Positions 1 through 16,233 of a DNA stretch of 16,819 nt are shown in pieces. Numbering within the stretch: the stretch's first letter is position 1; the number at the start of each line of letters is the position of its first letter. Made by a program: the position numbers and the translations under genes. The DNA is from a virus: the UHGV virus genome UHGV-0353285. The stretch is one strand, 5' to 3'. The notes under the pieces were generated by a model that searched no databases, had not been told where the DNA came from, and worked only from the letters and a program-made list of their open reading frames with translations.

Positions 1-2
1 TT

Positions 3-1574: not shown

Positions 1575-2884
1575 TGCCGTGGAACAATTTTCCGCACCTC
1601 GCCGCTAGGGCGTTCAATCAACCGCTTTTGCTGGAGCCCGCCTACGCGCGGGTATTTTTTTCTGCGCTGAGCGACCGGTTCGGTACCGGGCGACTGATTG
1701 ATACAGCGTCAGGAGAGGTAATGAACAGCGACGAAATGAACGCGCTCGCGATGGGGTGGGACAGCAGCGAGCGAACACGCCAGAAATCGTATCGCGTGGA
1801 GCGTGGTATAGCCGTTCTGCCGGTTACCGGGACGCTGGTTCATAAATTGGGTTATATCAATCCGGTCAGCGGGATGAGTGGTTACGACGGAATCGCAAAA
1901 CGCCTGCAGCAGGCGATTTCTGATCCCGATGTTAAGGGGATCCTGCTGGATATTGATTCCCCTGGCGGTGAGGTCGCCGGCGCGTTTGATACCGCTGATT
2001 TAATCGCCCGGGCGCGAGAGCAAAAACCGGTGTGGGCGCTGGCCAGCGATACGGCCTGCAGCGCCGCATATTTGCTGGCGTCAGCGTGTTCGCGCCGGCT
2101 GATAACGCAGACCGGCACGGTTGGTTCAATCGGTGTCCTGATGGCTCACCGCTGCGTCGAAAAGGCGCTGGAGATTGCCGGCGTTGACGTGACGCTGATT
2201 TACGCCGGCGCGCACAAAGTCGACGGGAACCCGTATTCCCAGCTGCCCGACGACGTTCGCGACGAATTCCAGCTGAGTATTAACAGCACACGCGAGCAGT
2301 TCGCGCAAAAAGTCTCGGATTATACCGGGCTGAAAAAATCCAGGGTGCTGGCCACAGAGGCCGCAGTATTTATCGGCGCGGACGCGATTAAATCTGGTCT
2401 CGCTGATCAACTCGTTAATTACGCGGACGCTATCGCAGTGATGGCCGACGCACTGAAACCAAAAACGGAGCGATTTATGCCAGGTACAACAGAAACCACG
2501 GCGGAGACCACGACCACAGAACAAACCGCGGCTACGACTACGGTCGCGCCGGTTGAGTCCAACGCGGAGCAGATTCGCGCGGACGCCGCATCGAGCGAAC
2601 TGGCACGCGTGATGGCCATCATCAACTGTCCCGAAGCTGTTGGGCGCGAGGCGCAGGCAAAAGCGCTCGCTGCCGTCCCCGGGATGACGGTCGGGCAGGC
2701 GCAGGCTGTCCTCGCGGCAGCACCGCAAACAGCGCAGGCGCGGACAGAAACGGCGCTCGATACACTCATGAGCACTGAATCACCGGAAACTATTCAGGAT
2801 GCCGGCAGCACCACGGCAACAGGAACAACCGCAAACGTCTCGATGCTGGTCGCGGCAGGGCGTTCAATTTTAGGGGATGAATAA
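1574..2884 (+). CDS. Head maturation protease / minor capsid protein C (S49 ClpP-like peptidase family)
   Basis: 436-aa ORF directly after the portal, with GGAGG Shine-Dalgarno upstream and ATG overlapping the portal stop. Lambda gpC-like blocks are present (GIAVLPV.GTL, GYDGI..RLQQA..DP.V.GILLDIDSPGG, KPVWALA, HKVDGNPYS.LPDDVR). The C-terminal third is Thr/Ala/Gln-rich, as in the scaffold portion of lambda C. Confidence 0.88.
   Translation: MPWNNFPHLAARAFNQPLLLEPAYARVFFSALSDRFGTGRLIDTASGEVMNSDEMNALAMGWDSSERTRQKSYRVERGIAVLPVTGTLVHKLGYINPVSGMSGYDGIAKRLQQAISDPDVKGILLDIDSPGGEVAGAFDTADLIARAREQKPVWALASDTACSAAYLLASACSRRLITQTGTVGSIGVLMAHRCVEKALEIAGVDVTLIYAGAHKVDGNPYSQLPDDVRDEFQLSINSTREQFAQKVSDYTGLKKSRVLATEAAVFIGADAIKSGLADQLVNYADAIAVMADALKPKTERFMPGTTETTAETTTTEQTAATTTVAPVESNAEQIRADAASSELARVMAIINCPEAVGREAQAKALAAVPGMTVGQAQAVLAAAPQTAQARTETALDTLMSTESPETIQDAGSTTATGTTANVSMLVAAGRSILGDE
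2477..2884 (+). CDS. Putative nested scaffolding protein (Nu3-like), from an in-frame internal start within the protease gene
   Basis: In lambda, Nu3 is translated in frame from the 3' third of gene C. Here in-frame ATGs at 2441 and 2477 would give ~135-147-aa products with the same C-terminus. This is an inference by analogy; no strong SD was seen. Confidence 0.4.
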   Translation: MPGTTETTAETTTTEQTAATTTVAPVESNAEQIRADAASSELARVMAIINCPEAVGREAQAKALAAVPGMTVGQAQAVLAAAPQTAQARTETALDTLMSTESPETIQDAGSTTATGTTANVSMLVAAGRSILGDE

Positions 2885-3213
2885 TGACCACAGAAACGTA
2901 TAGCCCGGATGATTTTATTCTGGGACCCGATCTTGTTGTGACGACCGTCGGTCATTTTCAGGGCGGGATCAACGTACCCCGGCTGACACCGATTATGCTC
3001 GACGCTACTGCCGGGACGTTTAAAGTCTGGGACGGCTCAATTGGTAAGGCGGTTGGTCTCACAGCCACAGCAGTTAATACAGGCTCCAGTTCTGCAGACT
3101 GCTCGTACTACAAATCAGGATCGTTTCGTTATACGGCGATTAACTGGGGTACGGTTACTGACGTCGCTAAACGCAAATCAGCGTTTGCTGGTACGCCAGT
3201 CAGCGTTGGCTGA
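2884..3213 (+). CDS. Head decoration protein (lambda gpD-like)
   Basis: 109-aa ORF between protease and major capsid genes. Motifs LTPIMLDAT...KVWDG...YYKSGSFRY...AFAGT resemble lambda gpD (110 aa). SD AGGGGA upstream; start overlaps the upstream stop (TAATG). Confidence 0.8.
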   Translation: MTTETYSPDDFILGPDLVVTTVGHFQGGINVPRLTPIMLDATAGTFKVWDGSIGKAVGLTATAVNTGSSSADCSYYKSGSFRYTAINWGTVTDVAKRKSAFAGTPVSVG

Positions 3214-3234
3214 TAGCAAAAAAAAACTCAAAAC

Positions 3235-3259
3235 AAGCCGCCTCCGGGCGGTTTTTTTA
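3235..3259 (+). terminator. Rho-independent terminator-like hairpin between decoration and major capsid genes
   Basis: Stem CCGCC (3238-3242), loop TCCG, stem GGCGG (3247-3251), followed by T7 (3252-3258) and preceded by an A-run (3218-3226). Likely partial or attenuating, since the capsid gene follows in the same operon. Confidence 0.55.
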
Positions 3260-3273
3260 TACAGGATATATAA

Positions 3274-4308
3274 ATGAGCGATTCGTTTACTACGTCAGAA
3301 CTGATTACCGCAACGCAGCAGGTATTTAAGTTCAATCCGTTGTTTTTAAAATTGTTTTTCCGTGAGACCTACACGTTTACGAGCGAAGAGGTTTTTCTGG
3401 ATAAAATCCCGGGCAAAGTCAATATGGCGGTATATTGCGCCCCGATGATCACCGGCAAAGTTGACCGCACTCGCGGCTATTCAACGAACCACTTTAAACC
3501 GGGTTACACGAAACCGAAACACACGATCAATCCGAATATGAGCATCAAGCGCGCCGCCGGTGAGCAAATTGGCCAGCCAGAAACGCCGGTCGAACGTCGT
3601 GCAAAAATCATCATGCAGAATTTGCTCGACGAGGAGCTCAGCATCAGCCAGCTCGAAGAGTTCCAGGCAGTGCAGGCGGTTCTGTACGGTAAATACACCG
3701 TTTCCGGCAGCAATATCGAGACCTATGAGATCGACATGAGCCGCAGCGCGACGAATAACGTCACTCAGTCCGGTTCGACCGCCTGGTCGACTCAGGACGC
3801 GGAAACGTATGACCCGAGCGACGATATTGAATCCTATGCAGACCTCGCCTCCGGTGCGGTTAACGTGATCATCATGGACGGTAAAGCCTGGAAGCAGCTT
3901 AAACGCTTTAAAAAATTCTGGACGGCACTGGATACGCGCCGCGGCTCAAACAGTCAGCTCGAAGTCGCGCTGAAAAACCTGGGCGATGTCGTTAGCTTTA
4001 AGGGCTATTACGGCGACACGGCGCTGTTCGTTTACAAGGGTCAATATATTGACCCGCTAATAGGCACTGAAACGCGTTATATGCCGGATAACACGATGAT
4101 CCTGGGCAACACAAAAAATCGCGGGCTCCGCACCTATGGCGCGATCCAGGACGAGGACGCGCTGAAAGAGGGTATCTGCGAAGCCACGCGCTATCCAAAA
4201 GTGTGGACGACGACCGGCGATCCGGCAGTGACGCAAACAATGACGCAATCCGCGCCAGCAATGGTCCTCACCGACGCTGATGCGTTCGTCGTCGTAAAAA
4301 TCGCGTAA
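3274..4308 (+). CDS. Major capsid protein (lambda gpE-like)
   Basis: 344-aa ORF. Strong resemblance to lambda E across the length (FKF.PLFL.LFFRE, PGYTKPKH, IIMQN..DEEL.I.Q.EE.QAV.AVL.GKYT, TYDP.DDIE.YA, DTRRGSNS.LE, RGLRTYG.IQD, RYPK.W.TTGDP). AGGA SD upstream. Confidence 0.92.
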   Translation: MSDSFTTSELITATQQVFKFNPLFLKLFFRETYTFTSEEVFLDKIPGKVNMAVYCAPMITGKVDRTRGYSTNHFKPGYTKPKHTINPNMSIKRAAGEQIGQPETPVERRAKIIMQNLLDEELSISQLEEFQAVQAVLYGKYTVSGSNIETYEIDMSRSATNNVTQSGSTAWSTQDAETYDPSDDIESYADLASGAVNVIIMDGKAWKQLKRFKKFWTALDTRRGSNSQLEVALKNLGDVVSFKGYYGDTALFVYKGQYIDPLIGTETRYMPDNTMILGNTKNRGLRTYGAIQDEDALKEGICEATRYPKVWTTTGDPAVTQTMTQSAPAMVLTDADAFVVVKIA

Positions 4309-4330
4309 GAGCCGAAGGCTCTTTTTTTTA
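4306..4330 (+). terminator. Rho-independent terminator-like hairpin after the major capsid gene
   Basis: Stem AGAGCC (4308-4313), loop GAA, stem GGCTCT (4317-4322), then a T-run (4322-4329). Overlaps the TAA stop of the capsid gene. Confidence 0.6.
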
Positions 4331-4340
4331 AGGAATTAAC

Positions 4341-4760
4341 ATGAGCACAAAAACAGAATTGCTGGCGCGCATTGACGATTTGAGCGCCCAGCTCGGTCGC
4401 GAATTACCGCGCAGCGGGACTATTGCTGAACTGGAATCAATCGTCGCCGGCGCTGAGTCAGAGCTCGATATTCTGAACGAGCAATCTGGTGACGCGGGAG
4501 GCATCGAGATCACGGTGAATGCTGCGCCCGGGACGGATAGCGATCTCGCTCAATCAATCGCGAGCGCTATCGTTTCACAGTCACAAGAACCGGAGCTCGC
4601 ACCGGCTACGCACCGCGTTAAGCTGCGAAACACGCTGGACGTTTATCACTACGTGAACGGGCGTCGCGTTCGCGAGATTGTTGCTGCTGGCCGGGAAATT
4701 GTTGTTGATTCACCGGAGGTTGCAGACCTCATCGCAGCTGATCACGTTTACGCGCTATGA
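4341..4760 (+). CDS. DNA packaging / head assembly protein, lambda FI-like
   Basis: 139-aa acidic ORF in the position of lambda FI. The N-terminus (MSTKTELLARIDDLSAQLGREL) resembles the start of lambda FI as I recall it. AAGGA SD upstream. Confidence 0.55.
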   Translation: MSTKTELLARIDDLSAQLGRELPRSGTIAELESIVAGAESELDILNEQSGDAGGIEITVNAAPGTDSDLAQSIASAIVSQSQEPELAPATHRVKLRNTLDVYHYVNGRRVREIVAAGREIVVDSPEVADLIAADHVYAL

Positions 4761-5137
4761 GCTACTACGATGACCTCCGGGCTGGCGACGAGGAGATGAT
4801 CCGTGAGTGGGGACGGCCCGTTAAATTACGCGGTAAAACCGACCCCATTATCGCTATTTTCAACGAGCCTTACGCGCGCGTTGACGTTCCTCACGCTGGT
4901 TTTATTACCGGTACAGTAACGAGCCTGACAGCGCTCTCAGACGACGTCGCTGGCGTTGTTGCGCGTGACGTTGTCCAGGTCCCAAAGCAGCGCAGTATCG
5001 CTGCTGACGGCTCTGTTACCTGGTCTGACTGGACCGATTACGTGGTTAAAGAGCCTCAACCGGATGGCATCGGTCTCACGAATATTTTTTTAGAGCCTCA
5101 CACGTCCAGCGAAAACAGCGAGTATTCAAAATACTAA
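4757..5137 (+). CDS. Putative head-tail joining (head completion) protein, FII-like by position
   Basis: 126-aa ORF with start overlapping the FI-like stop (ATGA). Assignment is by synteny with lambda FII and small size; sequence resemblance is not confidently recognised. Confidence 0.4.
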   Translation: MSYYDDLRAGDEEMIREWGRPVKLRGKTDPIIAIFNEPYARVDVPHAGFITGTVTSLTALSDDVAGVVARDVVQVPKQRSIAADGSVTWSDWTDYVVKEPQPDGIGLTNIFLEPHTSSENSEYSKY

Positions 5138-5157
5138 GTGGGACCGCGGTCCCACTT
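5136..5157. repeat. 22-bp perfect palindrome AAGTGGGACCG/CGGTCCCACTT
   Basis: Read directly: aagtgggaccgcggtcccactt, a perfect inverted repeat centred on a CCGCGG core. It overlaps the stop codon of the FII-like gene and has no downstream T-tract. Confidence 0.6.
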
Positions 5158-5168
5158 AAGGGGGAACC

Positions 5169-5849
5169 GTGGCCGATTTACGTAGTAACGCGCAGATGTT
5201 CGATATCGATGTTTCGGCGCTGGAGCAGCTCAGAGTCGAAATCAGCGCGACGCAACATCAGATGCTGATGGCATACAACAGAGCGCTGAACCGAACTGCA
5301 AAGTATATGCACCGAATTTCAGCAGGAATGATTTTGACTGCACTGGCAGCTAAAAATCATAAGGCCGTAAATAAACGAATCAAACCGTTCATTAAGCGCC
5401 GCAATTTTACAAAAGAAGGGGCAGGAGATCTGAGTAGCGTAAAACTCTGGTACGGCCTGAACGATTTCCGTGTATCTGAGCTAAAGGGGCGATTACAAAA
5501 TCCCAGGAAGCAGAAGCAGCCTCGCAATCCAGAGACCGGTCAATTTTTGAAAACAAAAAAAGGCGCTCGAGGGGCGGCTTTTACACCCAAAAGTGCAGGG
5601 CTGGCGATGATGAGTTGGCCAGATTCATTCGTAGCTAAGCGCTACGGTGCGAAAAGTGTCTGGATTCGGCTGGCTCGCGGAGGAATCGAAGAGGCTCGCG
5701 TACCTGTGCACGACGCGCTGGAGGATGCTATCGATGATTATATTTTTGAAAACATTGGCTCTGTTTTTATGGGCTTTTTTGAGAAAGATTTACGCGGTCG
5801 AGTGAAAGGTAATGTCCACGTAGACCCAAAAACAGGGAAACGATTATGA
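5169..5849 (+). CDS. Putative tail completion protein (lambda gpZ-like), basic
   Basis: 226-aa ORF with GTG start preceded by AGGGGGA. Lys/Arg-rich with loose resemblance to lambda gpZ and in the equivalent position after FII. The functional call is tentative. Confidence 0.4.
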   Translation: MADLRSNAQMFDIDVSALEQLRVEISATQHQMLMAYNRALNRTAKYMHRISAGMILTALAAKNHKAVNKRIKPFIKRRNFTKEGAGDLSSVKLWYGLNDFRVSELKGRLQNPRKQKQPRNPETGQFLKTKKGARGAAFTPKSAGLAMMSWPDSFVAKRYGAKSVWIRLARGGIEEARVPVHDALEDAIDDYIFENIGSVFMGFFEKDLRGRVKGNVHVDPKTGKRL

Positions 5850-6382
5850 GCGGGCTGGATGCATTTGACGAATATCTTGATCGCGTTAAAGGCGCGGTTT
5901 TACAAATACCGTTCATCAAAACATTCGGCATTTATCCAGAAATTCCGGCAGGATTTGAAACGCCAGCTCTGTTCCTGGAAATCAGCAACTGGTCACAGAG
6001 TGACGAAGCTGTTCCAGGCTCAATTCAGTCAGTCGAGCTGTCGTGTAATTTGTATTTGCTGCGTGAGTTTGCTGCAGATCAGTACGGACTGAAATCGCAG
6101 AATGCAGCGCTCTATATGACGAGCTGGATTGATGGGCGAATGTTCGGTCCCGGAACTAAACCGGCAAAATTCAGCGACGCGGAACCATGTGACTGGATTA
6201 AAAACGGGCAGTCAGTCGGTTCGCATTCAGTTCAGTGCGTGTCGTTCACGCAGGTTGTAGGCGTTGGTCCAGATATTTTCGATTATCCCTCACAGGGAAC
6301 CCTGAAAAATATATACGTCGGAATAGCGCCAGATATCGGCGCAGAACACGAGAGCGACTACTATGGCCCAATCGGACGATGA
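5846..6382 (+). CDS. Hypothetical virion morphogenesis protein (possible tail terminator/completion protein)
   Basis: 178-aa ORF with ATGA overlap to the upstream gene and AGGGA SD. It lies between head-completion genes and the baseplate genes. No confident family recognition. Confidence 0.3.
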   Translation: MSGLDAFDEYLDRVKGAVLQIPFIKTFGIYPEIPAGFETPALFLEISNWSQSDEAVPGSIQSVELSCNLYLLREFAADQYGLKSQNAALYMTSWIDGRMFGPGTKPAKFSDAEPCDWIKNGQSVGSHSVQCVSFTQVVGVGPDIFDYPSQGTLKNIYVGIAPDIGAEHESDYYGPIGR

Positions 6383-7265
6383 ATATGCTGCAGCGGAGAA
6401 CGCGCGCAGGCTGCGTGACGCAGTTAAACGAGGCACGATAGCTGCAGTTAAAATGAATCCTCCCCGCTGCCGAGTCTCATTTGGTGGCGAACACCAGTCA
6501 GGCTGGCTGCAGTGGTTTACTCACGCCACCTCAGAACGCGTCGACTGGAGCGCACCATCAGTGGGCGATCCCGTTACTGTTGTTTCTGAGGGTGGGGACA
6601 CGCGGAACGGCGTAGTTATGCTCGGGCTGCACATTGACAACAAAGCTCCGCCCAGTAATGACCCCCATGATCATGTCACTGCATACTGTGACGGGGCTAC
6701 GATGACGTATAACACAAAAAATCACACTCTGACATGGCAGGGCGTACCGGACGGCGTAGTAAAAATACTCGGTGAGTCTGAAATAGAAATATTCGGACGT
6801 GCAGACGTTACTATTAATAGCGAAAACGTTGTCAATATTCACGGTGGAAAATTAATTAACGCAGACGCTGACATTATTAATGTGACAGCAACAGACACAA
6901 TTAACGCACATGCTGATTTAGTGAACGTTATAGCAACGAGTTCTGTTAGTGTTACTGCTGCGAACAGAATATCGCTGACAGCTCAAACAATCAGTGCGTG
7001 GGCTCCGGGTGGGATAACACTAGCTGGTCCAACTCATATTACCGAGACATTAGTAGTAGATAAATTAGCGACATTCCGTAACGATATTTCTGTCACTGGA
7101 GATAACGGTGGAACAGGTAATATCACAACCCGCGGTAGTGTGTTAGCAGGGCAAGAGGTACGGGACCGACAAGGCACAATGAATGAGATGCGTATTACAT
7201 ATAACGGGCATACGCACATATGCCCTGACGGAGAAACAGAGAAACCAAATCAACCAATGGCGTAA
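6363..7265 (+). CDS. Baseplate central spike / assembly protein V (P2 gpV-like)
   Basis: 300-aa ORF. The N-terminal domain has the gpV-type signature (RCRV..GG...GWLQW..HA......W.APSVGD.V). The middle is a beta-helix-like repeat region (INADADIINVTATDTINAHADLVNVIATSSVSVTA). The C-terminus carries a His-rich apex (YNGHTHICPDG). Confidence 0.85.
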   Translation: MAQSDDEYAAAENARRLRDAVKRGTIAAVKMNPPRCRVSFGGEHQSGWLQWFTHATSERVDWSAPSVGDPVTVVSEGGDTRNGVVMLGLHIDNKAPPSNDPHDHVTAYCDGATMTYNTKNHTLTWQGVPDGVVKILGESEIEIFGRADVTINSENVVNIHGGKLINADADIINVTATDTINAHADLVNVIATSSVSVTAANRISLTAQTISAWAPGGITLAGPTHITETLVVDKLATFRNDISVTGDNGGTGNITTRGSVLAGQEVRDRQGTMNEMRITYNGHTHICPDGETEKPNQPMA

Positions 7266-7267
7266 AT

Positions 7268-7609
7268 ATGCTTGGAATGAACCGTGACACCGGTAAGCCT
7301 TTATCGGGGACTGATCACATTTGTCAGTCTATCGTTGATATTTTAACGACCCCGCTGGGAACCCGTGTAATGCTGCCGGAATATGGAAGCAAATTATTTG
7401 ACCTTGTTGATAATCCCACAGATCCATCGCTTGCTATGCGGATAATTATGGAAAGCGCTGGCGCAATAGCACGCTGGGAACCACGCGTCAGAATTGACAG
7501 AATAAATGTGTTAGCAGTGGATATCGGGAAAATAACAATATTAATTATCGCAACAGATATCGAAACACAACAGCGATTAGAGTTTAATAATATGGAGCTG
7601 ATATTTTGA
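7268..7609 (+). CDS. Baseplate wedge protein W (GPW/gp25 family)
   Basis: 113-aa ORF immediately after V. Motifs GMNR.TG, I.QSI.DIL.TP.G.RVM.P.YGS and WEPRV are typical of gpW/gp25 proteins. Confidence 0.85.
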   Translation: MLGMNRDTGKPLSGTDHICQSIVDILTTPLGTRVMLPEYGSKLFDLVDNPTDPSLAMRIIMESAGAIARWEPRVRIDRINVLAVDIGKITILIIATDIETQQRLEFNNMELIF

Positions 7610-8526
7610 TAACATCAACAGTTCAAAACTCGATAGTGAAAACTATTGATATGAGTCTGCTTCCGCCGCCAGCATTCGTTAAAACCCCGTTATTTTCAGA
7701 TGTTAAATCTAATCTACTGTCAGAGCTGCAGATATTATATCCACAATTTAACGCGCTCCTGGAGTCAGACCCAGCAGTTAAACTGCTGGAAATAGTTGCA
7801 TACAGAGAAATTATCATTACAGCCCGGGTAAATCAGGGGATGCTCGCTGTATTGCTCGCATTCGCAAAAAATAGCGATCTCGACCAGATTGGCGCTAATT
7901 TTGACTGCCTGCGGCTGTTGATAACGCCAGCTAATCCCGACTCAGTCCCCCCGACTGAAGCGGTTTACGAGAGTGACGACGAGTATCGTCATCGCATACA
8001 ACTATCATGGTACGCGCGGAATACTGCCGGCAGTACAAACGCGTATAACTATTTCGCGCTATCGAGTGATCCCGATGTTCTGTCAGCGCAGGCATACGGC
8101 CCGCCTGTGACTCAGCCAGGGTACGTCGATATGTACGTTTTGTCCCGGACAGGCGACGGTGTACCCCCGCAATCACTACTGAATACAGTGAATGCGGCCC
8201 TGTCTCCTGACGACACTCGGCCACTAACTGATTTCGTGACCGTAAAACCTGCGTCGAACCTGAATTACCGGGTTGAGGCCGTTATCGTAGCGGGGCTCGG
8301 TCCCGACCAGAACGTATTACTCAACGGCGCGCAGAGCGATCTTGAAGTCTACGTGACCACACAACATAAAATCGGGGCAACAGCAGCTCTGTCAGGAATT
8401 TACGACGCGATACATCGCGACGGCACTGAGCGTGTGATTCTGATATCACCGACAGAGGATGCGATCGCCGGCGTCGGACAGGCTCCACACTGCACAGAAA
8501 TCAAACTCAGCGTACAGATGGGGTGA
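7606..8526 (+). CDS. Baseplate protein J (P2 gpJ-like)
   Basis: 306-aa ORF following W with gpJ-like blocks (LLE..AYRE, IGAN...RL.ITPA, DDEYR.RIQ). The start is uncertain: TTG at 7606 overlapping the W stop, or ATG at 7651 (MSLLPPPAF). Confidence 0.85.
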   Translation: MITSTVQNSIVKTIDMSLLPPPAFVKTPLFSDVKSNLLSELQILYPQFNALLESDPAVKLLEIVAYREIIITARVNQGMLAVLLAFAKNSDLDQIGANFDCLRLLITPANPDSVPPTEAVYESDDEYRHRIQLSWYARNTAGSTNAYNYFALSSDPDVLSAQAYGPPVTQPGYVDMYVLSRTGDGVPPQSLLNTVNAALSPDDTRPLTDFVTVKPASNLNYRVEAVIVAGLGPDQNVLLNGAQSDLEVYVTTQHKIGATAALSGIYDAIHRDGTERVILISPTEDAIAGVGQAPHCTEIKLSVQMG

Positions 8527-9155
8527 CAATGACGAGCCAGAGTGTACTGCCTCCTAACGCAGTAACACCAGAAAGAGCGCTGGAAGCCGTTTTATCTCAT
8601 GTCGGCGATTTGCCTGGTGATATACGAATTATTAAAAATCCCGACCTGTGTCCCGCAAATTTGCTCCCATGGCTAGCGTGGGAATACGCGGTTACGTACT
8701 GGAATCCGGACTGGAGTGAGCGACAAAAACGCGAAATTATCAAAGCAGCCGCGTGGCAAAACAAACACCGCGGCACCCGTGGAGCTGTTGAACGCGCGTT
8801 ATTAACTGTCGGATTTAATAGCAAAATGCGCGAGTGGTTTGAAGCCACACCCAGGGACGACCCGTATACATTCGCAATTAAAATATATCTGCTAAAAAGT
8901 ATGGGGTTAGATTTAGAGCTATTGAATACATTTATTGCACAAATATTTGATGCAAAAAATTGTCGTTCATTATTAAAAGAAATAAATTTCGAAACTGGTG
9001 TTGATGGTGAGTTTTTTATAGCTGGTACACCTTACGCGAAAATAGGCGTAAATATACCGGCAGATGGTGATGGCGGCGTGAAATTAAATGGCGGATTATA
9101 TATATCAGGCTCACCAATTGTTAGTTTAAATGTGGAGATAGGGCCAAATGGCTGA
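8523..9155 (+). CDS. Baseplate/tail protein I (P2 gpI-like)
   Basis: 210-aa ORF with conserved N-terminal block (LLPWLAWEY.V..W...WSE..KR..I). Start is GTG at 8523 (overlapping the J stop) or ATG at 8529. The C-terminal third is markedly AT-rich. Confidence 0.82.
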   Translation: MTMTSQSVLPPNAVTPERALEAVLSHVGDLPGDIRIIKNPDLCPANLLPWLAWEYAVTYWNPDWSERQKREIIKAAAWQNKHRGTRGAVERALLTVGFNSKMREWFEATPRDDPYTFAIKIYLLKSMGLDLELLNTFIAQIFDAKNCRSLLKEINFETGVDGEFFIAGTPYAKIGVNIPADGDGGVKLNGGLYISGSPIVSLNVEIGPNG

Positions 9156-10065
9156 AAATAAAATTTACGCAGTACTGACAGACCGCGGCGCACAACTCGA
9201 AGCCGCTGCGCTGGCGTCAGGCGTGCCGGTGGTGCTGAACAAATTTGTTATCGGTGACGCGAACGGAAACGACGACGTAACACCGGATCCGGCGCGTACT
9301 GCATTAATTCACGAGACGTATCGCGGGGATATTAAATCGTCAGAAAATAGTGGTAACCAGGTTATCTTTACACTATACGTACCACCGGAAACCGGCGGCT
9401 ATACTATCCGTGAGGTGGGAATATTAACCGATAAAGGCGAACTGTACTCAGTTGCACGTTCACCGGATATTTTAAAACCTACGGACAGCAACGGCGCGCT
9501 GATTTCAATTACGTATAAATACACGCTCGCGGTGTCCAGCACGTCTACTGTTAACGTAGTTATTGATAACAGTAGTGGAATGAGTCAGGCCGATGCTGAT
9601 AAGCGATATTTGCAGATAAGAAAAAATTTATCTGAAATTAAAGACAAAGGCGCGGCGGCGCAAAAAACGGCACGGGAAAATATCGGCGTTAATCTTGATG
9701 ATTATTACACCAAAAAGGACGTAGACAATTTAATTGATGATAGCGATGACCTCGCACCGGTGGTGCCTGCGTTTGCAGCTGTCGGCTCAGTTGTTTATGC
9801 AGGATTTGGATTTAGTAACGAGACTGTTATGCACTATAAACCCGGGGATACTATTGCAGGTTCATTGATTTTTCCTGCGTATATATATAGAAAAAATGCG
9901 CAGTTAATTAGCGACGTTATTATTAGTATAGGATTTTCAGCAGAATCCCTGCCTGGCTTGTGGGCGCTCTCAGGGTATATGCCGTCGAGTTCCGAACCGA
10001 CAGACGGTAATGCCGAAGCTATTTTTACAGCGAGTTTTGCAACAAATTTCATTAGAGTAGCCTAA
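9148..10065 (+). CDS. Tail fibre protein (P2 gpH-like N-terminal baseplate-attachment domain, divergent C-terminus)
   Basis: 305-aa ORF with start overlapping the gpI stop. The N-terminal ~130 aa (KF.IGDANGNDD..PDP..TALIHE.YRG...S......V.FT...PPE.GGYTIREVGI.TDKGELY) resembles the conserved fibre N-terminus. The C-terminal half is AT-rich and unrecognised. Confidence 0.75.
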   Translation: MAENKIYAVLTDRGAQLEAAALASGVPVVLNKFVIGDANGNDDVTPDPARTALIHETYRGDIKSSENSGNQVIFTLYVPPETGGYTIREVGILTDKGELYSVARSPDILKPTDSNGALISITYKYTLAVSSTSTVNVVIDNSSGMSQADADKRYLQIRKNLSEIKDKGAAAQKTARENIGVNLDDYYTKKDVDNLIDDSDDLAPVVPAFAAVGSVVYAGFGFSNETVMHYKPGDTIAGSLIFPAYIYRKNAQLISDVIISIGFSAESLPGLWALSGYMPSSSEPTDGNAEAIFTASFATNFIRVA

Positions 10066-10309: not shown

Positions 10310-10651
10310 ATGAGCACTAATTTTTTACATGGGCCTCGCACGCTCGAATACGACGACGGCACAAAAGAGATCAACACAGTCGATATTTCAGTTATCGGGA
10401 TTGTTGGTACTGCACCGGATGTTGGGCTAGGGGAGAGGGCATCATTAACGTGGGGATCACCGCTGGCAAATAATGTAGTCACCTTTTTCCCGGTCTATTA
10501 TGGGGATTACGGAAATAAATTTGCAGTTGAAATTATTAAGAAGGGTATTTCTGGAATTAAATACGGATATAGCACACTTCCAGACGGAACAATAAAATTA
10601 ACGCTCGGGACCGACAGCACAACAAGCCGGAACGGCTGGCGCAAGACGTAG
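10310..10651 (+). CDS. Small ORF carrying a tail sheath N-terminal motif (sheath 5' fragment or split sheath N-terminal part)
   Basis: 113-aa ORF with strong SD (AGGAGA, 10292-10297). The first ~37 residues (MSTNFLHGPRTLEYDDGTKEINTVDISVIGIVGTAPD) match the conserved N-terminal strand of contractile sheath proteins. The stop TAG (10649-10651) overlaps the GTG of the downstream sheath ORF. Confidence 0.5.
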   Translation: MSTNFLHGPRTLEYDDGTKEINTVDISVIGIVGTAPDVGLGERASLTWGSPLANNVVTFFPVYYGDYGNKFAVEIIKKGISGIKYGYSTLPDGTIKLTLGTDSTTSRNGWRKT

Positions 10652-11802
10652 TGACTCACGGTGAAGGGCGAACCGCTGAGGATTGTATTTGTGTAGGCAT
10701 TGACGAGGACAGTAAAAATGACGGAATTGTTTATCAGATGCCCGTCACGAGCCTGACGGGCGGTTCTGACGCTCCATTTCCAGTCAACATACCCACACTA
10801 ATTGCAGGTAGTCAGAAAAAAGCGGCGCTCCTGGGTGCAGCAGGCACTCTCCCCGCAGCCATCACTGATATTTTAAATCAGACAGATGCGCTAATTGTTG
10901 TTGTTCGCGTAGACGAAAACACAGACGCGACAAAAGAGCGTGAGAACGTAATCAACGGAATTAACGTTTTGTTAACATCGGGACAAATAAACCAGGTGAC
11001 TCCACGAATTTTGATTGCACCTGATTACAGCGCTAATGACGACGTCGCTGCCGCGCTGGAGGTAGTCACAAATAAATTACGTGGAGTCGGCTATATTGAT
11101 TCTCCACGCACGGCATCGCCCGCAGACGTCGTTAACCGCCGCCATAAATATAGCGCGCGCATGGAAATACTACGCCCGCGTGTGTTTTCCACGGGCGATC
11201 TCAGTGATCTGTCGCGTCCATATTCAGCTATCGCCGCTGGTTTACGAGCCAGAATTGACAACGAAAAAGGGTTTTGGTGGAGCAAATCTAATCAAAATAT
11301 TTATGGAATAACAGGGCTTGAGCAGGTTGATGATTTCATTATTGGCGAGACAAACTGCACGGCGAACCTGCTGAACGCTAGTCAGGTAAGCACCATCATT
11401 CGCTATGATGGATTCCGACATTGGGGTAACTATCTGTGCAGCCTGGATCCGCAGTGGTCGTTTGAATGCGTTCGTCGGACAGCTGACGTAATTGAAGATT
11501 CTATAGCCCGGGCAATGATGACAGATTTTATTGATCGCCCGATAGACCTGCATCTCGGAACAGACGTTGTCGAGTCGATAAACGCATATCTGCACAAATT
11601 AGAGGAGCAGGGTGCGATTAACGGAGGGCGTGCGTGGTTAGACGGTGAGTTGAATACAAAAGAAAGTCTGGCCGCTGGTAATCTTTATATTAATGTTGAT
11701 TTTGGTCCGAAATCTCCGGCACAAACAATTACGTTAATGTACCGCATTAATAATGACTATACAGTTGAAGCGCTGGCCTCCCTTTTTAAAGAAACAGCCT
11801 GA
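10651..11802 (+). CDS. Tail sheath protein (P2 FI-like)
   Basis: 383-aa ORF with sheath-like blocks throughout (FPVNIPTLI.GSQKKAA, ALIVVVRVDE, PRILIAPDYS, LRARID.EKGFWWS.SNQ.I.GITG, C.ANLLNA..V.TIIRYDGFR.WGN, LYINVDFGP). GTG start with weak SD; the frame is open upstream only back to 10573. Confidence 0.88.
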   Translation: MTHGEGRTAEDCICVGIDEDSKNDGIVYQMPVTSLTGGSDAPFPVNIPTLIAGSQKKAALLGAAGTLPAAITDILNQTDALIVVVRVDENTDATKERENVINGINVLLTSGQINQVTPRILIAPDYSANDDVAAALEVVTNKLRGVGYIDSPRTASPADVVNRRHKYSARMEILRPRVFSTGDLSDLSRPYSAIAAGLRARIDNEKGFWWSKSNQNIYGITGLEQVDDFIIGETNCTANLLNASQVSTIIRYDGFRHWGNYLCSLDPQWSFECVRRTADVIEDSIARAMMTDFIDRPIDLHLGTDVVESINAYLHKLEEQGAINGGRAWLDGELNTKESLAAGNLYINVDFGPKSPAQTITLMYRINNDYTVEALASLFKETA

Positions 11803-11819
11803 TAATTCGGAGAGTAAAT

Positions 11820-12332
11820 ATGTCAGATAGCAACGCTTACCGCGCGTTTGCGCTATTCGTGCAGGGTGAACGGGTTTTAAATTGTACTGAATATACTCCA
11901 GTCGATATGAAAATAATCGAAGACGAGTTTAAAACAGGCGCGATGGATACAGCCATCACCTTGGATGGTGGTATGGAGAAAATGTCAGCAAGTTTTAAAG
12001 TTTCAGGTTCTGATTCTGGTGTTATGAGCTATTTCGGGTTAATACCGGGAGTCAAGACGCGGTTTGAAATTCGTAGTGCGTACACAGACTCATATGGAAT
12101 AAATTTTGAGCGTATTGATACCTACGAGGGACTTATTACAGCAATCACTGATGACGCTCAGGGGACTGATTCAAAATCGTCAGTGGGGCAATCAGTAACG
12201 ATTGCGCCGAGCTATTATAAACGAGTTCAAAACGGACGAATTATTTACGAAATTCATCCTGCAAAAATGAAGCGCGTTATTAACGGTGTTGATGTTCTTG
12301 CGGGCGTCGCTCGAATCCTTCATGTATATTAA
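11820..12332 (+). CDS. Tail tube protein (P2 FII-like)
   Basis: 170-aa ORF directly after the sheath with GGAGAG SD. Size and motifs (GGMEKMSASFKVSG, SYYKR, INGVD.LAG) fit the tail tube family. Confidence 0.85.
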   Translation: MSDSNAYRAFALFVQGERVLNCTEYTPVDMKIIEDEFKTGAMDTAITLDGGMEKMSASFKVSGSDSGVMSYFGLIPGVKTRFEIRSAYTDSYGINFERIDTYEGLITAITDDAQGTDSKSSVGQSVTIAPSYYKRVQNGRIIYEIHPAKMKRVINGVDVLAGVARILHVY

Positions 12333-12344
12333 AAGGCAAATAAA

Positions 12345-12626
12345 ATGGAATCATTATTAGACAGTATGACTATTACGCTCTCTCGCCCGTTTATTATTAA
12401 AGGCGAGAGCTGCGATACAATTACTATTCGCGAACCAAAATTACGCGATCGTATTATGTTCAGTAACGATAAAAGTGGTCTTGAAGAGCGGACAGCGACA
12501 ATGCTGGCACGCTTGGCAAATCTGGAGCGAGAGGATTTATATGCACTGCCTGCGTGCGATTACGATCAAATGGAGGCCGCGTTTAACGAACTGGTAAAGC
12601 CCCCGAAAGACCGACATCAGATATAG
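12345..12626 (+). CDS. Tail assembly chaperone E (P2 gpE-like)
   Basis: 93-aa ORF between the tube and tape measure genes, the conserved position of the tail chaperone. The N-terminus (ITLSRPFIIKGE..DTITIREPKLRD) resembles gpE-family proteins. Confidence 0.75.
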   Translation: MESLLDSMTITLSRPFIIKGESCDTITIREPKLRDRIMFSNDKSGLEERTATMLARLANLEREDLYALPACDYDQMEAAFNELVKPPKDRHQI

Positions 12627-12757
12627 TTATTCTGATTCCGTTTATTGCGAAAAAACTTGCTATCCCGCCCGATACGCAAATGGACCTGCCGTATCGGGTT
12701 TTTAATTTCTATGTAAACGAGGTCATGAAAACCGATGGCTATTTCTCAAAACTTTAA
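12345..12757 (+). CDS. Putative E' (E+E') product made by -1 ribosomal frameshift near the 3' end of E
   Basis: The -1 frame is open from 12485 to a TAA at 12755-12757 and would extend E by ~50 aa (…PFIAKKLAIPPDTQMDLPYRVFNFYVNEVMKTDGYFSKL), ending 23 nt inside the tape measure gene. No canonical X_XXY_YYZ heptamer; nearest candidates are GGTAAAG (12593-12599) and the C5 run 12600-12604. Confidence 0.45.
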
Positions 12758-14375
12758 AACGCAGGTTGTATTTGGGGGGCGAATAGACCCGTCGTTTCGG
12801 CGCGGTACAACAGAACTCAACGACGCCATTCGGCAGACGTCGTCTACTGTCGGAAAATTAACGAAAAGCCAGGATAAATTAAAAGACAAAATCGCAGCAA
12901 TGAAACTGGCGGGTAAAGACGTTTCTGATTTATCTGCTCAGTATCAAAAGCTGGACCGTCGGATAAAAGCGACAACACAGGACCAGGAAGCTCTGAATAC
13001 TCAGCTCGCCAAAAAACAGCGGCTGGAGAATTGGACGGGGCGCGCAAAAGGGGCTGCAAAATGGGGAGGGCGAGCCGCCGCAGGTGCGGTGAGGGCCACG
13101 GGACGGGGTATCAAATGGGGGACGCTAGGGGCTGTGGGGCTGCTCGGCGGCGCGGCTGCTGGCGCGCTGGCAATGAATGCAGAGACGTCAGAAAAGCTCG
13201 GTCTGGCGAAGTCCTACGGTGTTGGCATCGAAAAATACGCTGCGTGGGAAAATATTGGTAAAGCTGCAGGGCTGAATGGCGAAAACGTAGGAGATCTGTC
13301 GGAGGAGTTGACTAATAAAATCGGGGAGGTTGGAAACGAAAAAAACCTGAATCCCATGTTGTTTCAAATTGGCCTGACAAAAAAACGGATGGCTAAATGG
13401 GATCGAGAAAAACAGTTCAATGAAGTTATGCGGCGTATCTCTGAAATGAAGGATGATCAACAGGCGGCGAGTCTGGCTGATCAGCTCATGGGGGGAGAGG
13501 CTAATAAAATAATGACCTATATGCGGGCGACTGGTAAAAGCTGGGAGCAGACTATGTCGGACGCTCAAAAATCGAACCTGCTAACGAAAGAAGGGGCTGA
13601 GGGGGCAGCGCGCGCGCACGTATCCGTCACGAATCTATGGGGGGCAATTACATCGGGGTTGGCAGATACGCTCGGTAAAATCGGGGGGGAACTCGCGCCG
13701 ACGTTTGACGCTATGCGAGACGAGCTGGCATCCTGGTTTAAAGAGAATCAAGGGGGGGTTGTTGATAGTATTAAAGAATGGGTTAAGCCAGAAAATATGA
13801 AAAAAATGTGGGAGGGGATAGTCAGTTTTGGCGAGGCGTGCGTTAAATTCGGAAAAATAATTTGGGCAGTAGCAAAAAAACTTGAGTGGTTAATACCGGA
13901 CGAGAAAACAGACGAGGAACAGCGCGTATATAACGAAGAATATAATAAAGCGTATCAGGAATTCATGGATAGTGGTGGTAAATATTCACCGAACCCAGGA
14001 CTGGCAGCAGATAATGTAGCAAAAGCAAAGGCCGACGAAGCCGTAGATAATATGCGACACCCTGAACGTCTTGCTCGTGCAAAATCACAGGCTGAATCAA
14101 TGCTCTCGTTTGCTAACCCGTTTACTGGATTAATAAATAAAGACTCAACGCCTGAATCACAAAACTCAGCAACCTTGAATATTGACGCGCTGAGACAGGC
14201 AGTCGCAACTCCAGCGCCAGAGCAAAACAATAAAATTGAAATCAATATTATCGGAGCGGCAGATCCACAATCAACACAGCAGGCTGCTGCATCGGGTGTG
14301 CTCGACGGGTTGAGACAAGTTGCGAGTTCGTATAATCGTGGCGCGATGTTTGATAAACCAGCGGCGGCGGGGTGA
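12735..14375 (+). CDS. Tail tape measure protein
   Basis: 546-aa ORF downstream of the chaperone with GAGG SD. It has a coiled-coil-like N-terminus, a Gly/Ala-rich hydrophobic segment (GTLGAVGLLGGAAAGALAM) and a long alpha-helical, low-complexity body. Confidence 0.8.
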   Translation: MAISQNFKTQVVFGGRIDPSFRRGTTELNDAIRQTSSTVGKLTKSQDKLKDKIAAMKLAGKDVSDLSAQYQKLDRRIKATTQDQEALNTQLAKKQRLENWTGRAKGAAKWGGRAAAGAVRATGRGIKWGTLGAVGLLGGAAAGALAMNAETSEKLGLAKSYGVGIEKYAAWENIGKAAGLNGENVGDLSEELTNKIGEVGNEKNLNPMLFQIGLTKKRMAKWDREKQFNEVMRRISEMKDDQQAASLADQLMGGEANKIMTYMRATGKSWEQTMSDAQKSNLLTKEGAEGAARAHVSVTNLWGAITSGLADTLGKIGGELAPTFDAMRDELASWFKENQGGVVDSIKEWVKPENMKKMWEGIVSFGEACVKFGKIIWAVAKKLEWLIPDEKTDEEQRVYNEEYNKAYQEFMDSGGKYSPNPGLAADNVAKAKADEAVDNMRHPERLARAKSQAESMLSFANPFTGLINKDSTPESQNSATLNIDALRQAVATPAPEQNNKIEINIIGAADPQSTQQAAASGVLDGLRQVASSYNRGAMFDKPAAAG

Positions 14376-14800
14376 CAATGAGTGATGCAATAAACGGTGC
14401 TGAGGATATCATGCTCGGCCTGGGTGATTTCATTTTTGCTATATCAACAGTAGCGTACAACAAACTGCAACGTAGTGACGCCTGGCGCTGGGCTCAGCAA
14501 ACACGATTCGGGAAAAACGACGCGTTGCAGATAACCGGACGACCGAACCCCACAATCACTATCGATGGAAAGATAAACGCTTTATTTCTTGACGGGTGCG
14601 GCGTCGGCCTGTTGACAGATTTGCGTGCGCTTGGGAACACGGGAGAACCCCAGCAGCTAGTGCTGGGGACCGGGGAGGTGAAAGGGTACTGGGTGCTGCG
14701 AGAACTAACTGAAACGCAAAACAGCTTTTTGATGGGCGGAACCCCAAAATCGCAGGACTTTTCACTCACGCTCGAATATTATGGAGCTTCGCTAGATTAA
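14372..14800 (+). CDS. Tail protein U (P2 gpU-like)
   Basis: 142-aa ORF overlapping the tape measure stop (GTGA). gpU-like motifs (LGLG.F.F, Y..LQR...WRWA.Q.R.G) and the conserved position after the tape measure. Start is GTG 14372 or ATG 14378. Confidence 0.82.
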   Translation: MTMSDAINGAEDIMLGLGDFIFAISTVAYNKLQRSDAWRWAQQTRFGKNDALQITGRPNPTITIDGKINALFLDGCGVGLLTDLRALGNTGEPQQLVLGTGEVKGYWVLRELTETQNSFLMGGTPKSQDFSLTLEYYGASLD

Positions 14801-14973
14801 TATAAAATCAAGCGCTACCAGAGCACTTAACAAGTATAAAAATAATAAAAAAAACTACGAACATAAATGTAAAACAACCTGATGGTATTTTTTTTGACGC
14901 CGAAATACTAATACCTCTCCGACTACTAAAATTAATTCTCATTATGAAATCCTTTTAATTAATGGGGCCCCAA

Positions 14974-15186
14974 ATGATTACATACACTACACGGGACGGT
15001 GACCGTCTCGATCAGATCTGCCTTGCTGTCTACGGGAGAACAGCAAAAACGACAGAAACCGTGTTATATCAGGTTTTAAATTACGGCGTAACGGATATGT
15101 GTGCCGTGTTTCGTGCAGGAGAAAAAATTGTTTTACCAGAAATCGACCCCGAACCGGTTAAAAAAGAAACGCAATTATGGGATTGA
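14974..15186 (+). CDS. Tail protein X (P2 gpX-like, LysM-type)
   Basis: The frame is open from ATG 14962, but ATG 14974 (MITYTTRDGDRLDQIC..YGRT...ETVL) has the better G-rich SD and matches the gpX N-terminus. About 70 aa, ending ...QLWD, typical of gpX. Confidence 0.8.
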   Translation: MITYTTRDGDRLDQICLAVYGRTAKTTETVLYQVLNYGVTDMCAVFRAGEKIVLPEIDPEPVKKETQLWD

Positions 15187-15189
15187 TGA

Positions 15190-16233
15190 ATGAGTGATTA
15201 CGTAAATACTGGCGTGGAAGCATGGAAGCCCAATTTTTATATATCTGCTGATAATGAAAACATCACGGATAAAATAAGAAAAGGTTTGATCAATATCACG
15301 CTCACAGATTATGGCGGTTCGAGTAAACAGACAGACGAATTACGCGTAGCAATCGTTTCTGAAACTCTGAAAATTCCGGCCCGTGGCGTGAAGATCAGTG
15401 TCGGACTCGGTTTCGGTAATCAGATAATTGATAAGGGTATATACATCGTCGACGGTGCGAGCAGTGGCGGTGAACCTCGGGTAGTTGATTTCACAGCAAA
15501 AGCGGCTCCGATGAACGCGTCAAAAGGCTCTCCGACAGTTCAGAGCAAAAAAACTCGCTCCTGGAGCGACGTCACTGTCAGCAATATCGTTGCAACAATA
15601 GCGAGCGATAACGGGCTAAAACCACGTGTATCAAAGCGGTTTGCAGACAATATTATCACGCAACTCGATCAAGTCGGCGAGTCAGATATGCACCTGATGT
15701 CGAGACTAGCAACACGATTCGATGCGGTGAGTAAACCCGCGGGAGGGTACTGGATATTCCTGCCGCGCGGCGCGGGCGAATCTGTTAGCGGAGCGCCGCT
15801 TCAGCACTACACGCTCACGCGTCGTGATAACTCCAGCTGGGGTTATTCACGAAACGGACAAAGTGGCGATAGTGGTAGCGGTGGCGAAAATCCGGAACCG
15901 ACGTATCTGATTAAATATCACGACACAGCAACTGGGCAGATCAAAGAATTGCGGACAGGTAGTGGCGGCGATCCTGTCATTGAATGGCCGGCAGTTGAGC
16001 CGTCGCTCGACGCAGCGAAAGAAGCTGCACCAGGGCTCAAGGGCGGTGCAGCTAAAAAAGAGTTCTCTATGACGTACACGACGCCAGCGACGCTCGATTT
16101 AGTGTCGCTGACAGCAGAATGCAAAGTCACAACTCAAGGATTCGGGACCGAGGAGGACCGGGACTGGACTATCAACACGCTGAGCCTGACGCTTGCTGAA
16201 AACGGCTTTTCGGTTCGACTGTCTCTGGAGTAA
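15190..16233 (+). CDS. Tail protein D (P2 gpD / late control gene D family)
   Basis: 347-aa ORF immediately after X (stop/start TGATGAATG), in the conserved U-X-D arrangement of P2-like and R-pyocin tail clusters. Size and sequence are gpD-like. Confidence 0.82.
   Translation: MSDYVNTGVEAWKPNFYISADNENITDKIRKGLINITLTDYGGSSKQTDELRVAIVSETLKIPARGVKISVGLGFGNQIIDKGIYIVDGASSGGEPRVVDFTAKAAPMNASKGSPTVQSKKTRSWSDVTVSNIVATIASDNGLKPRVSKRFADNIITQLDQVGESDMHLMSRLATRFDAVSKPAGGYWIFLPRGAGESVSGAPLQHYTLTRRDNSSWGYSRNGQSGDSGSGGENPEPTYLIKYHDTATGQIKELRTGSGGDPVIEWPAVEPSLDAAKEAAPGLKGGAAKKEFSMTYTTPATLDLVSLTAECKVTTQGFGTEEDRDWTINTLSLTLAENGFSVRLSLE

Follow-up and report, generated by a model that had tools for sequence, protein, structure and literature searches.

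Does the tail assembly chaperone gene E of the Escherichia coli prophage represented by UHGV virus genome UHGV-0353285 specify a second, longer chaperone by programmed -1 frameshifting just ahead of the tape measure gene T, and if so, on which nucleotides does the ribosome slip? The stretch analyzed here (16,819 nucleotides, called the window throughout; positions are counted from its first letter) carries its tail genes in the order sheath, tube, E, T, U, X, D, and two overlapping open reading frames (ORFs) lie between the tube and tape measure genes: E itself (12345-12626) and an ORF in the -1 frame (12587-12757). An earlier note, made from the letters of the window, had proposed that these form an E/E' pair joined by a -1 frameshift upstream of the tape measure gene, a proposal that all of the sequence-level evidence supports. 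The prophage probably makes an E+E' protein by a -1 shift in which one tRNA-Lys slips on the tetranucleotide A_AAG within G_GUA_AAG. Tail assembly chaperone frameshift pairs of this kind (the lambda G/GT and P2 E/E+E' type) were reportedly described by Xu, Hendrix & Duda in 2004; the locus has the position, the chaperone ORF, the conserved -1 ORF lacking a start codon and the slippery sequence in the overlap that mark such a pair, and it is an unannotated case of this well-known frameshift type.

A conserved reading frame between E and T

The product of E matches PF10109 (Phage_TAC_7) with E=5.8e-16 and 58.7 bits (gathering score 25), its residues 9-84 covering profile positions 1-78 of 79. 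The gpE protein of phage P2 matches the same Pfam family, and the E proteins of relatives are named 'phage tail assembly protein' by the Prokaryotic Genome Annotation Pipeline (PGAP).

Downstream of E, the 'gap' of 108 nucleotides before T (12735-14375) is spanned by the -1 frame, which, as the earlier note had read it, passes through the E stop codon (TAG, 12624-12626) and ends with TAA at 12755-12757, 23 nucleotides inside T. The opening of that frame had been placed at 12485; three-frame translation corrects this, since an in-frame TAA at 12584-12586 closes the frame and the open stretch runs from 12587 to 12757 (56 codons and a stop). A shift is therefore confined to about 12 codons of E (12587-12623; GAA CTG GTA AAG CCC CCG AAA GAC CGA CAT CAG ATA in the zero frame) rather than about 46. 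The predicted E+E' protein, join(12345..12599, 12599..12757), has 137 amino acids and would read ...AFNELVK/APERPTSDIVILIPF...GYFSKL across the junction (marked by the slash); the peptide APERPTSDIVILIPFIAK is encoded within 12599-12685 in the -1 frame. Coordinates of the features are collected in Table 1.

Homologous loci were collected by a protein search with look-up of the encoding contigs, by scans of IMG/VR with E and, independently, with E', and by scans of metagenomes and genomes. The genome, viral and metagenome contig scans returned the same few lineages, and additional ones came from protein matches and their encoding contigs. The resulting set comprises 16 distinct lineages from Escherichia, Salmonella, Leclercia, Enterobacter and metagenomes, in which E is ~48-74% identical to that of the window, except in one near-identical lineage (L012). 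All 16 have the -1 ORF: its opening lies 2-3 codons ahead of one and the same site, its end is equally distant in each, and it overlaps the start of T. The earlier note had suggested comparing the extension with those of related phages, and it proves to be conserved as protein at every homologous locus examined.

An open frame of 56 codons is unremarkable alone, arising by chance with a probability of ~0.07 by the arithmetic of this analysis, (61/64)^56. It is the comparative data, rather than the length of the open frame, that are decisive in indicating that the -1 ORF exceeds chance. Over 12635-12733, the 99 nucleotides for which no frame but -1 could be coding, 11 diverged sequences contain no stop codon in that frame and 31 and 23 in the other two; variable sites fall at -1-frame codon positions 1, 2 and 3 in the proportions 18, 12 and 30 of 33; and codons that differ do so synonymously in 46% of cases when read in the -1 frame vs. 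9% and 8% in the others. The frame is thus under purifying selection, which includes the strongly conserved N-terminal half of E' (DIxILxPFxxKxLxIPPDTQ), while the +1 frame has no conservation among the homologous loci.

The same region contains a hairpin (12667-12699) with arms CCCGATACG and CGTATCGGG, a predicted free energy of -17.7 kcal/mol and a z-score of -3.7, followed by TTTTTAATTT; it lies 36 nucleotides before the start of T and resembles an intrinsic terminator or attenuator. It pairs at 8-9 of 9 positions in 11 of the 16 lineages and is absent from five, 85% of cells pair with 2 compensatory pairs, and all six of six synonymous arm sites are complementary. The hairpin might lower expression of T relative to E, and because it lies 68 nucleotides from the slip site it is too far away for a classical frameshift stimulator. 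Such an element, with its U-run, would suit a spacer between E and T that is untranslated, its conservation reflecting RNA or DNA elements and its open -1 frame incidental; no annotation pipeline calls a gene there. Against this stand the three-periodic substitutions, the synonymous excess and the lack of stops in the 11 sequences, which are a protein-coding signature, and the five lineages that lack the hairpin and keep both the ORF and its length, so that an untranslated spacer is very improbable.

How, then, would the frame be entered? Its only ATG codons within E' are at 12686 and 12731 in the window, and neither ATG, GTG nor TTG occurs in the -1 frame between 12587 and 12685. These two ATG codons, together with short ORFs called in relatives (P0127, of 40 amino acids, and a 39-amino-acid 'hypothetical protein' annotated separately from part of the E' ORF of Hafnia phage yong2), would suit initiation of E' on its own, unfused to E; however, the ATG positions move among lineages, leaving no conserved start codon in E', and initiation at them would omit the conserved N-terminal half, which makes independent synthesis of E' very hard to credit. 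A HMMER search with E' of 1.84 billion representative proteins found one 40-amino-acid fragment beginning at an internal ATG and one repetitive false positive, with no free-standing or naturally fused E' gene among them; lacking a start codon, the domain is hardly represented in protein databases at all. E' is a coding extension found only 3' of E and without a start of its own, and therefore carries the signature of a frameshift product.

Two 137-amino-acid 'fused' database proteins (P0001 and P0002) were considered as evidence of fusion and rejected; their junctions differ (NE/TGKAPER and ELVKLSER) and resemble assembly indels. More widely, chaperone 'variants' joined to the -1 or +1 frame at differing positions (P0001-P0004, P0014, P0017, P0026, P0027) come mostly from Logan and ENA assemblies, have the look of indel errors and could lead annotation by homology astray.

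Table 1. Features of the E-T region and adjoining genes of the window.
Feature	Position	Strand	Basis or remark
Tail tube gene (FII-like)	11820..12332	+	PF04985 Phage_tube, E=8e-22; directly 5' of the chaperone gene
Gene E, tail assembly chaperone, 93 amino acids, zero-frame product	12345..12626	+	PF10109 Phage_TAC_7
Shine-Dalgarno-like GGAGG, possible weak stimulator, unproven	12572..12576	+	16 nucleotides 5' of the heptamer
-1-frame stop codon TAA, bounding the shift window on its 5' side	12584..12586	+	Three-frame translation; equivalent TAA/TGA in 16/16 lineages
G_GUA_AAG, non-canonical heptamer with proposed shift site A_AAG (12596-12599)	12593..12599	+	A_AAG in 16/16 lineages
E' extension, -1 frame, 52 amino acids and stop	12599..12757	+	Equal length in all lineages; substitution pattern of a translated frame
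CCCCCG, second candidate of the earlier note	12600..12605	+	Not a conserved site
Weak AU-rich hairpin, 8 nucleotides 3' of the heptamer	12608..12643	+	Minimum free energy fold of the window only; unsupported as a conserved element
Terminator-like hairpin with U-run to ~12709	12667-12699		Falls within the coding sequence of E'
Tape measure gene T, 546 amino acids	12735..14375	+	ORF list; flanked by E and gpU (PF06995); first 23 nucleotides shared with the end of E'

The slippery tetranucleotide and candidate stimulators

Across the lineages, the overlap in which a shift is possible spans 13-15 codons, set by -1-frame stops 2-3 codons upstream of the site. The in-frame A_AAG (12596-12599) is the only slippery motif of this overlap present in 16/16 lineages, and its conservation is at the nucleotide level. 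E has 30 columns in which a degenerate amino acid is invariant among the 16 lineages; the codon varies in 29 of them, including two-fold degenerate ones, and the sole codon-invariant column is Lys85 (AAG, 12597-12599). With the 11-sequence set, 4 of 36 such columns are codon-invariant, including the adjacent GTA and AAG and, as a third, a Pro codon within the dual-coding overlap. In-frame A_AAG occurs 11 times in the 5,238 codons of the window genes and once in E, with ~0.025 expected in the overlap.

AAG is preceded by GTA in 14 of the 16 lineages, by GCA in one (Val to Ala, a Salmonella prophage) and by CTA in one (Val to Leu), giving relatives' heptamers of G_GCA_AAG and G_CUA_AAG. The preceding amino acid thus changes while the third-position A stays, and therefore the conserved element is the tetranucleotide A_AAG rather than re-pairing in the P site. 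Such re-pairing would be mismatched at the middle position (GUA to GGU; in relatives GCA to GGC and CUA to GCU). The earlier note had named GGTAAAG as a candidate resembling the lambda heptamer; its position and candidacy stand, and the implied lambda-like P-site re-pairing does not, given the varying upstream codon. That note was also right that the canonical X_XXY_YYZ class is missing, there being no in-frame instance anywhere in E. As a heptamer the site is non-canonical, as anticipated, yet it is a standard bacterial tetramer site of the form Z_ZZN, in which one tRNA re-pairs, here from AAG to AAA.

A literature search on GGUAAAG and GGTAAAG returned nothing relevant. Slippage on the A_AAG tetramer works in bacteria with a single tRNA-Lys (PMC5009743; PMC4066793), and the use of one E. 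coli tRNA-Lys for both codons is the accepted cause of AAG shiftiness (PMC5009743). In E. coli, tetramer shiftiness follows the order A_AAG >> U_UUC > U_UUU > C_CCY > A_AAA, with A_AAG reaching up to 5.6% alongside a strong pseudoknot (PMC4066793). Precedents in which the upstream codon cannot re-pair are G_CGA_AAG in IS1222 and A_CGA_AAG in Bacillus cdd (PMC5009743), and non-canonical slip sites in tail-chaperone genes are already recognized as common (PMC10885494).

The second candidate of the earlier note, CCCCCG, lies where it was placed and was rejected as the main site: the base before CCG or CCA is C in 12 of the 16 lineages and G in the other four (ACG CCG twice, CCG CCG, ATG CCG). A real -1 shift one or two codons downstream of A_AAG, with tRNA-Pro slipping on the C-run (C_CCG, 12602-12605), would draw on the C_CCG or C_CCA tetramer of those 12 lineages, on a CCG codon that is invariant in the 11-sequence set and on frameshifting by C_CCG in E. 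coli 1.8-3.6-fold above background with a pseudoknot (PMC4066793). That same activity, however, makes C_CCG a poor shifter, far less prone to slip than A_AAG (PMC4066793); E' is intact in the four lineages that have lost the run; dual coding in the overlap would be expected to keep CCG invariant; and the frozen synonymous sites of GTA/GCA/CTA-AAG would be left unexplained. A shift on the C-run is accordingly improbable. Less credible again is a fusion made by transcriptional slippage, in which RNA polymerase rather than the ribosome would introduce the shift by adding a base: the overlap does contain short homopolymers (AAA, and CCCCC in the window), but productive runs normally have ~6-9 or more A or T (PMC5009743 and general knowledge), the longest conserved run is AAA and the run of five C is not conserved.

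A slip on A_AAG might be expected to have a stimulator, either a structure 5-9 nucleotides downstream or an SD (Shine-Dalgarno) motif 6-17 nucleotides upstream, and the earlier note had looked to RNA structure 3' of the site for one; most lineages have some potential to form a hairpin, but no covarying hairpin and no consensus fold emerged across the family. The weak hairpin immediately downstream (12608-12643) pairs in 65.5% of family cells vs. 63% in shuffles, and RNAalifold finds no consensus. A CGGAA/UUCCG stem shared by many members was rejected as well, with 70% of cells pairing, 0 compensatory changes, no excess over shuffles and arms that are dual-coding. Folding around the site, sequence by sequence, gave z-scores from +0.5 to -2.2, and Rfam matches nothing in the window at the gathering threshold, nor anything around the site at E<=1. 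Upstream, a Shine-Dalgarno (SD)-like motif lies 14-17 nucleotides ahead of the heptamer's second base in 12 of the 16 lineages, a distance at the outer edge of the 6-17 nucleotides used as the SD spacing window by Sharma et al. (PMC4066793).

Proposed mechanism and known tail-chaperone systems

In the proposed mechanism, most ribosomes translating E would stop at 12624-12626 and release the 93-amino-acid chaperone, while a minority would slip back by one nucleotide during decoding of Lys85, as the single E. coli tRNA-Lys re-pairs from AAG to the overlapping AAA (12596-12598). The next codon would then be GCC at 12599, and translation would continue in the -1 frame to the TAA at 12755-12757, giving the 137-amino-acid E+E'. 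On the model of P2 E/E+E' and lambda G/GT, the E part common to both products would bind the tape measure protein; the E' part, to go by where it lies and by the paradigms of P2 and lambda (PMC5009743; PMC2628397), may recruit the tube protein to the complex of chaperone and tape measure. Neither E nor E+E' would be expected in the virion, again by analogy with P2 and lambda.

The closest parallel is phage P2, in which the genes FII (tube), E, T, U and D follow in the same order and E' likewise overlaps the start of T. The P2 shift, on T_TTT_TTG (annotated; record feature 19685), is at residues 84/85, the end of the PF10109 match, and Val84-Lys85 of the present locus occupies the same profile position, 78 of 79. 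The products are also alike in size (91/142 amino acids in P2 vs. 93/137 here). P2 differs in having a canonical heptamer, whereas only the tetramer A_AAG is slippery here; its E+E' matches PF06528 at 1.2e-21, whereas the present E' matches no family (Pfam, NCBIfam and PHROGs were searched); and the prophage, unlike P2, has a lambda-like head module. The motif hPP[SD][ET] is common to E' and P2 E'. Solved structures include no sequence relative of E or E+E'.

The gpG/gpGT pair of phage lambda (G_GGA_AAG, with G:GT at roughly 30:1) resembles the proposed site in that the A-site AAG re-pairs to AAA and, by analogy here, in that no product enters virions (PMC5009743). Lambda differs in that its P-site tRNA also re-pairs (GGA to GGG), whereas GUA to GGU is mismatched in mid-codon, in its chaperone family and in being a siphovirus. 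With regard to the slip itself, the tetramers of IS1222, Bacillus subtilis cdd and the IS3 and IS1 families are nearer: there, too, one tRNA-Lys slips on A_AAG while re-pairing is impossible at the upstream codon. They belong to transposases or are incidental, and they usually come with an SD upstream or a structure downstream, whereas the site considered here lies in a phage tail chaperone gene with no conserved stimulator found.

At the aligned position, other members of the family carry different slippery motifs. Burkholderia phage Mica has A_AAT_TTT there, with the frameshift product annotated in its record. In a large sister clade of enterobacterial prophages and phages ('AFNVFMLPP'; Hafnia phage yong2, Citrobacter phage Chris1), E is 37-41% identical, a conserved -1 extension of similar length is recognizably alignable with E', and the shift window aligns with the present one, but GTT_TTT (a U_UUU tetramer) replaces A_AAG. 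In an 'AFNDFLL' variant of that clade (L071), the aligned site reads T_TTT_TTG, the canonical heptamer of P2. Within the PF10109 family, the shift thus apparently keeps its position while the slip motif turns over.

The sister clade also includes members from Klebsiella, Pantoea, Erwinia, Serratia, Providencia and others (proteins P0043-P0126), with extensions at 1419-1610 in L030 (yong2) and 1386-1568 in L031 (Chris1). It, too, is without a canonical heptamer, as GTT TTT ATG offers U_UUU only. In L071 (601-885, 'AFNDFLLPP'), an in-frame G_GTA_AAG lies five codons upstream of T_TTT_TTG, inside the open -1 window, and may be a coincidence or a second slip site.

Several points weigh against a frameshift at A_AAG. 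The trans-frame protein has not been observed for the prophage or any close relative, and the frameshift is annotated neither by PGAP nor in the phage records. No convincing stimulator was found, either as downstream structure or as upstream SD; L007, L069, L070 and L076 lack the SD-like motif or have it out of range, and elsewhere it lies at the far edge of the spacing. Stimulator-free tetramers are near background in E. coli reporters, with a mean of 0.147% vs. 0.112% (PMC4066793). The evidence for A_AAG is comparative, and the 16 lineages behind it are related, not independent. Finally, E' has no match to PF06528 (Phage_P2_GpE) at E<=10, in the window or in 11 family members, and neither hhalign of E' against P2 E' (probability 3%) nor BLASTP against P2 E+E' is significant; the function of E' is therefore assigned by position only.

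Since bare tetramers shift barely above background, the efficiency at this site may be low, or an enhancer may be unrecognized. Were the efficiency lambda-like (a few per cent), an unrecognized booster of slippage would be needed; candidates may be the strongly conserved sequence ...CDYxxLExAFNE[LM]VK, acting from the exit tunnel as a nascent peptide, or a link between slippage and the conserved terminator-like hairpin downstream. It is doubtful that a bare A_AAG, with no RNA stimulator, sets the chaperone ratio as one of a PF10109 series of slip motifs repeatedly swapped at a fixed codon.

Prophage setting and significance

Of 5,426 complete E. coli genomes, 455 carry the prophage (95-99% identity), in every case in the chromosome, and four partial 'vB_EcoM' phage records match it at ~90%; no literature on it was found. 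It is a mosaic in which a lambda-like head and packaging region (window 1-10065) is joined to 10310-16233. The left half encodes a lambda-family portal (PF05136), an S49 protease, a gpD-like decoration protein, a gpE-like capsid protein, FI and a head-tail attachment protein; the right half encodes a P2-like contractile tail with baseplate V/W/J/I, fibre, sheath, tube, chaperone, tape measure, gpU, gpX and gpD.

The tail sheath gene (10310-11802) is split by a 1-nucleotide deletion near 10625 (ACAACAA-GCCGG vs. ACAACAACGCCGG in a 99.7%-identical E. coli prophage), such that ORFs 10310-10651 (113 amino acids) and 10651-11802 (383 amino acids) correspond to one 497-amino-acid sheath in NZ_CP134358.1; this copy either belongs to a defective prophage or contains a sequencing error. 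In the record of vB_EcoM-783R5 (L001, ON470627.1), the tape measure (2434-4085) is entered as a pair of ORFs that overlap (2434-2886 and 2883-4085), which suggests a frameshift or a sequencing error in the record. Between gpU and gpX, lineages L004, L005 and L007 carry an 80-amino-acid Imm_superinfect (PF14373) gene on the minus strand at ~5357-5655; the corresponding part of the window (14800-14962) is a 160-nucleotide gap with a 44-amino-acid minus-strand ORF that has no family match.

A type I-E spacer from an array of clustered regularly interspaced short palindromic repeats in E. coli SZQ1 (NZ_CP173996.1) matches the E' stretch 12683-12714 at 32 of 32 positions. A functional ATG protospacer-adjacent motif lies at 12680-12682, and the array adjoins cas1e/cas2e. 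This match is evidence for earlier immunity directed at this phage family.

The general view of tail assembly and frameshifting is unchanged by this locus. What it brings to light is a predicted E+E' protein, probably essential for tail assembly, that is unannotated in a prophage of ~8% of complete E. coli genomes and missing from the related phage records as well; this clade and its sister clade will go on escaping frameshift finders limited to X_XXY_YYZ. It adds a well-supported comparative case of a tetranucleotide-dependent tail-chaperone frameshift, and because the motif changes at a fixed position within one chaperone family, the locus offers a convenient system for the study of bare A_AAG slippage in its native context.

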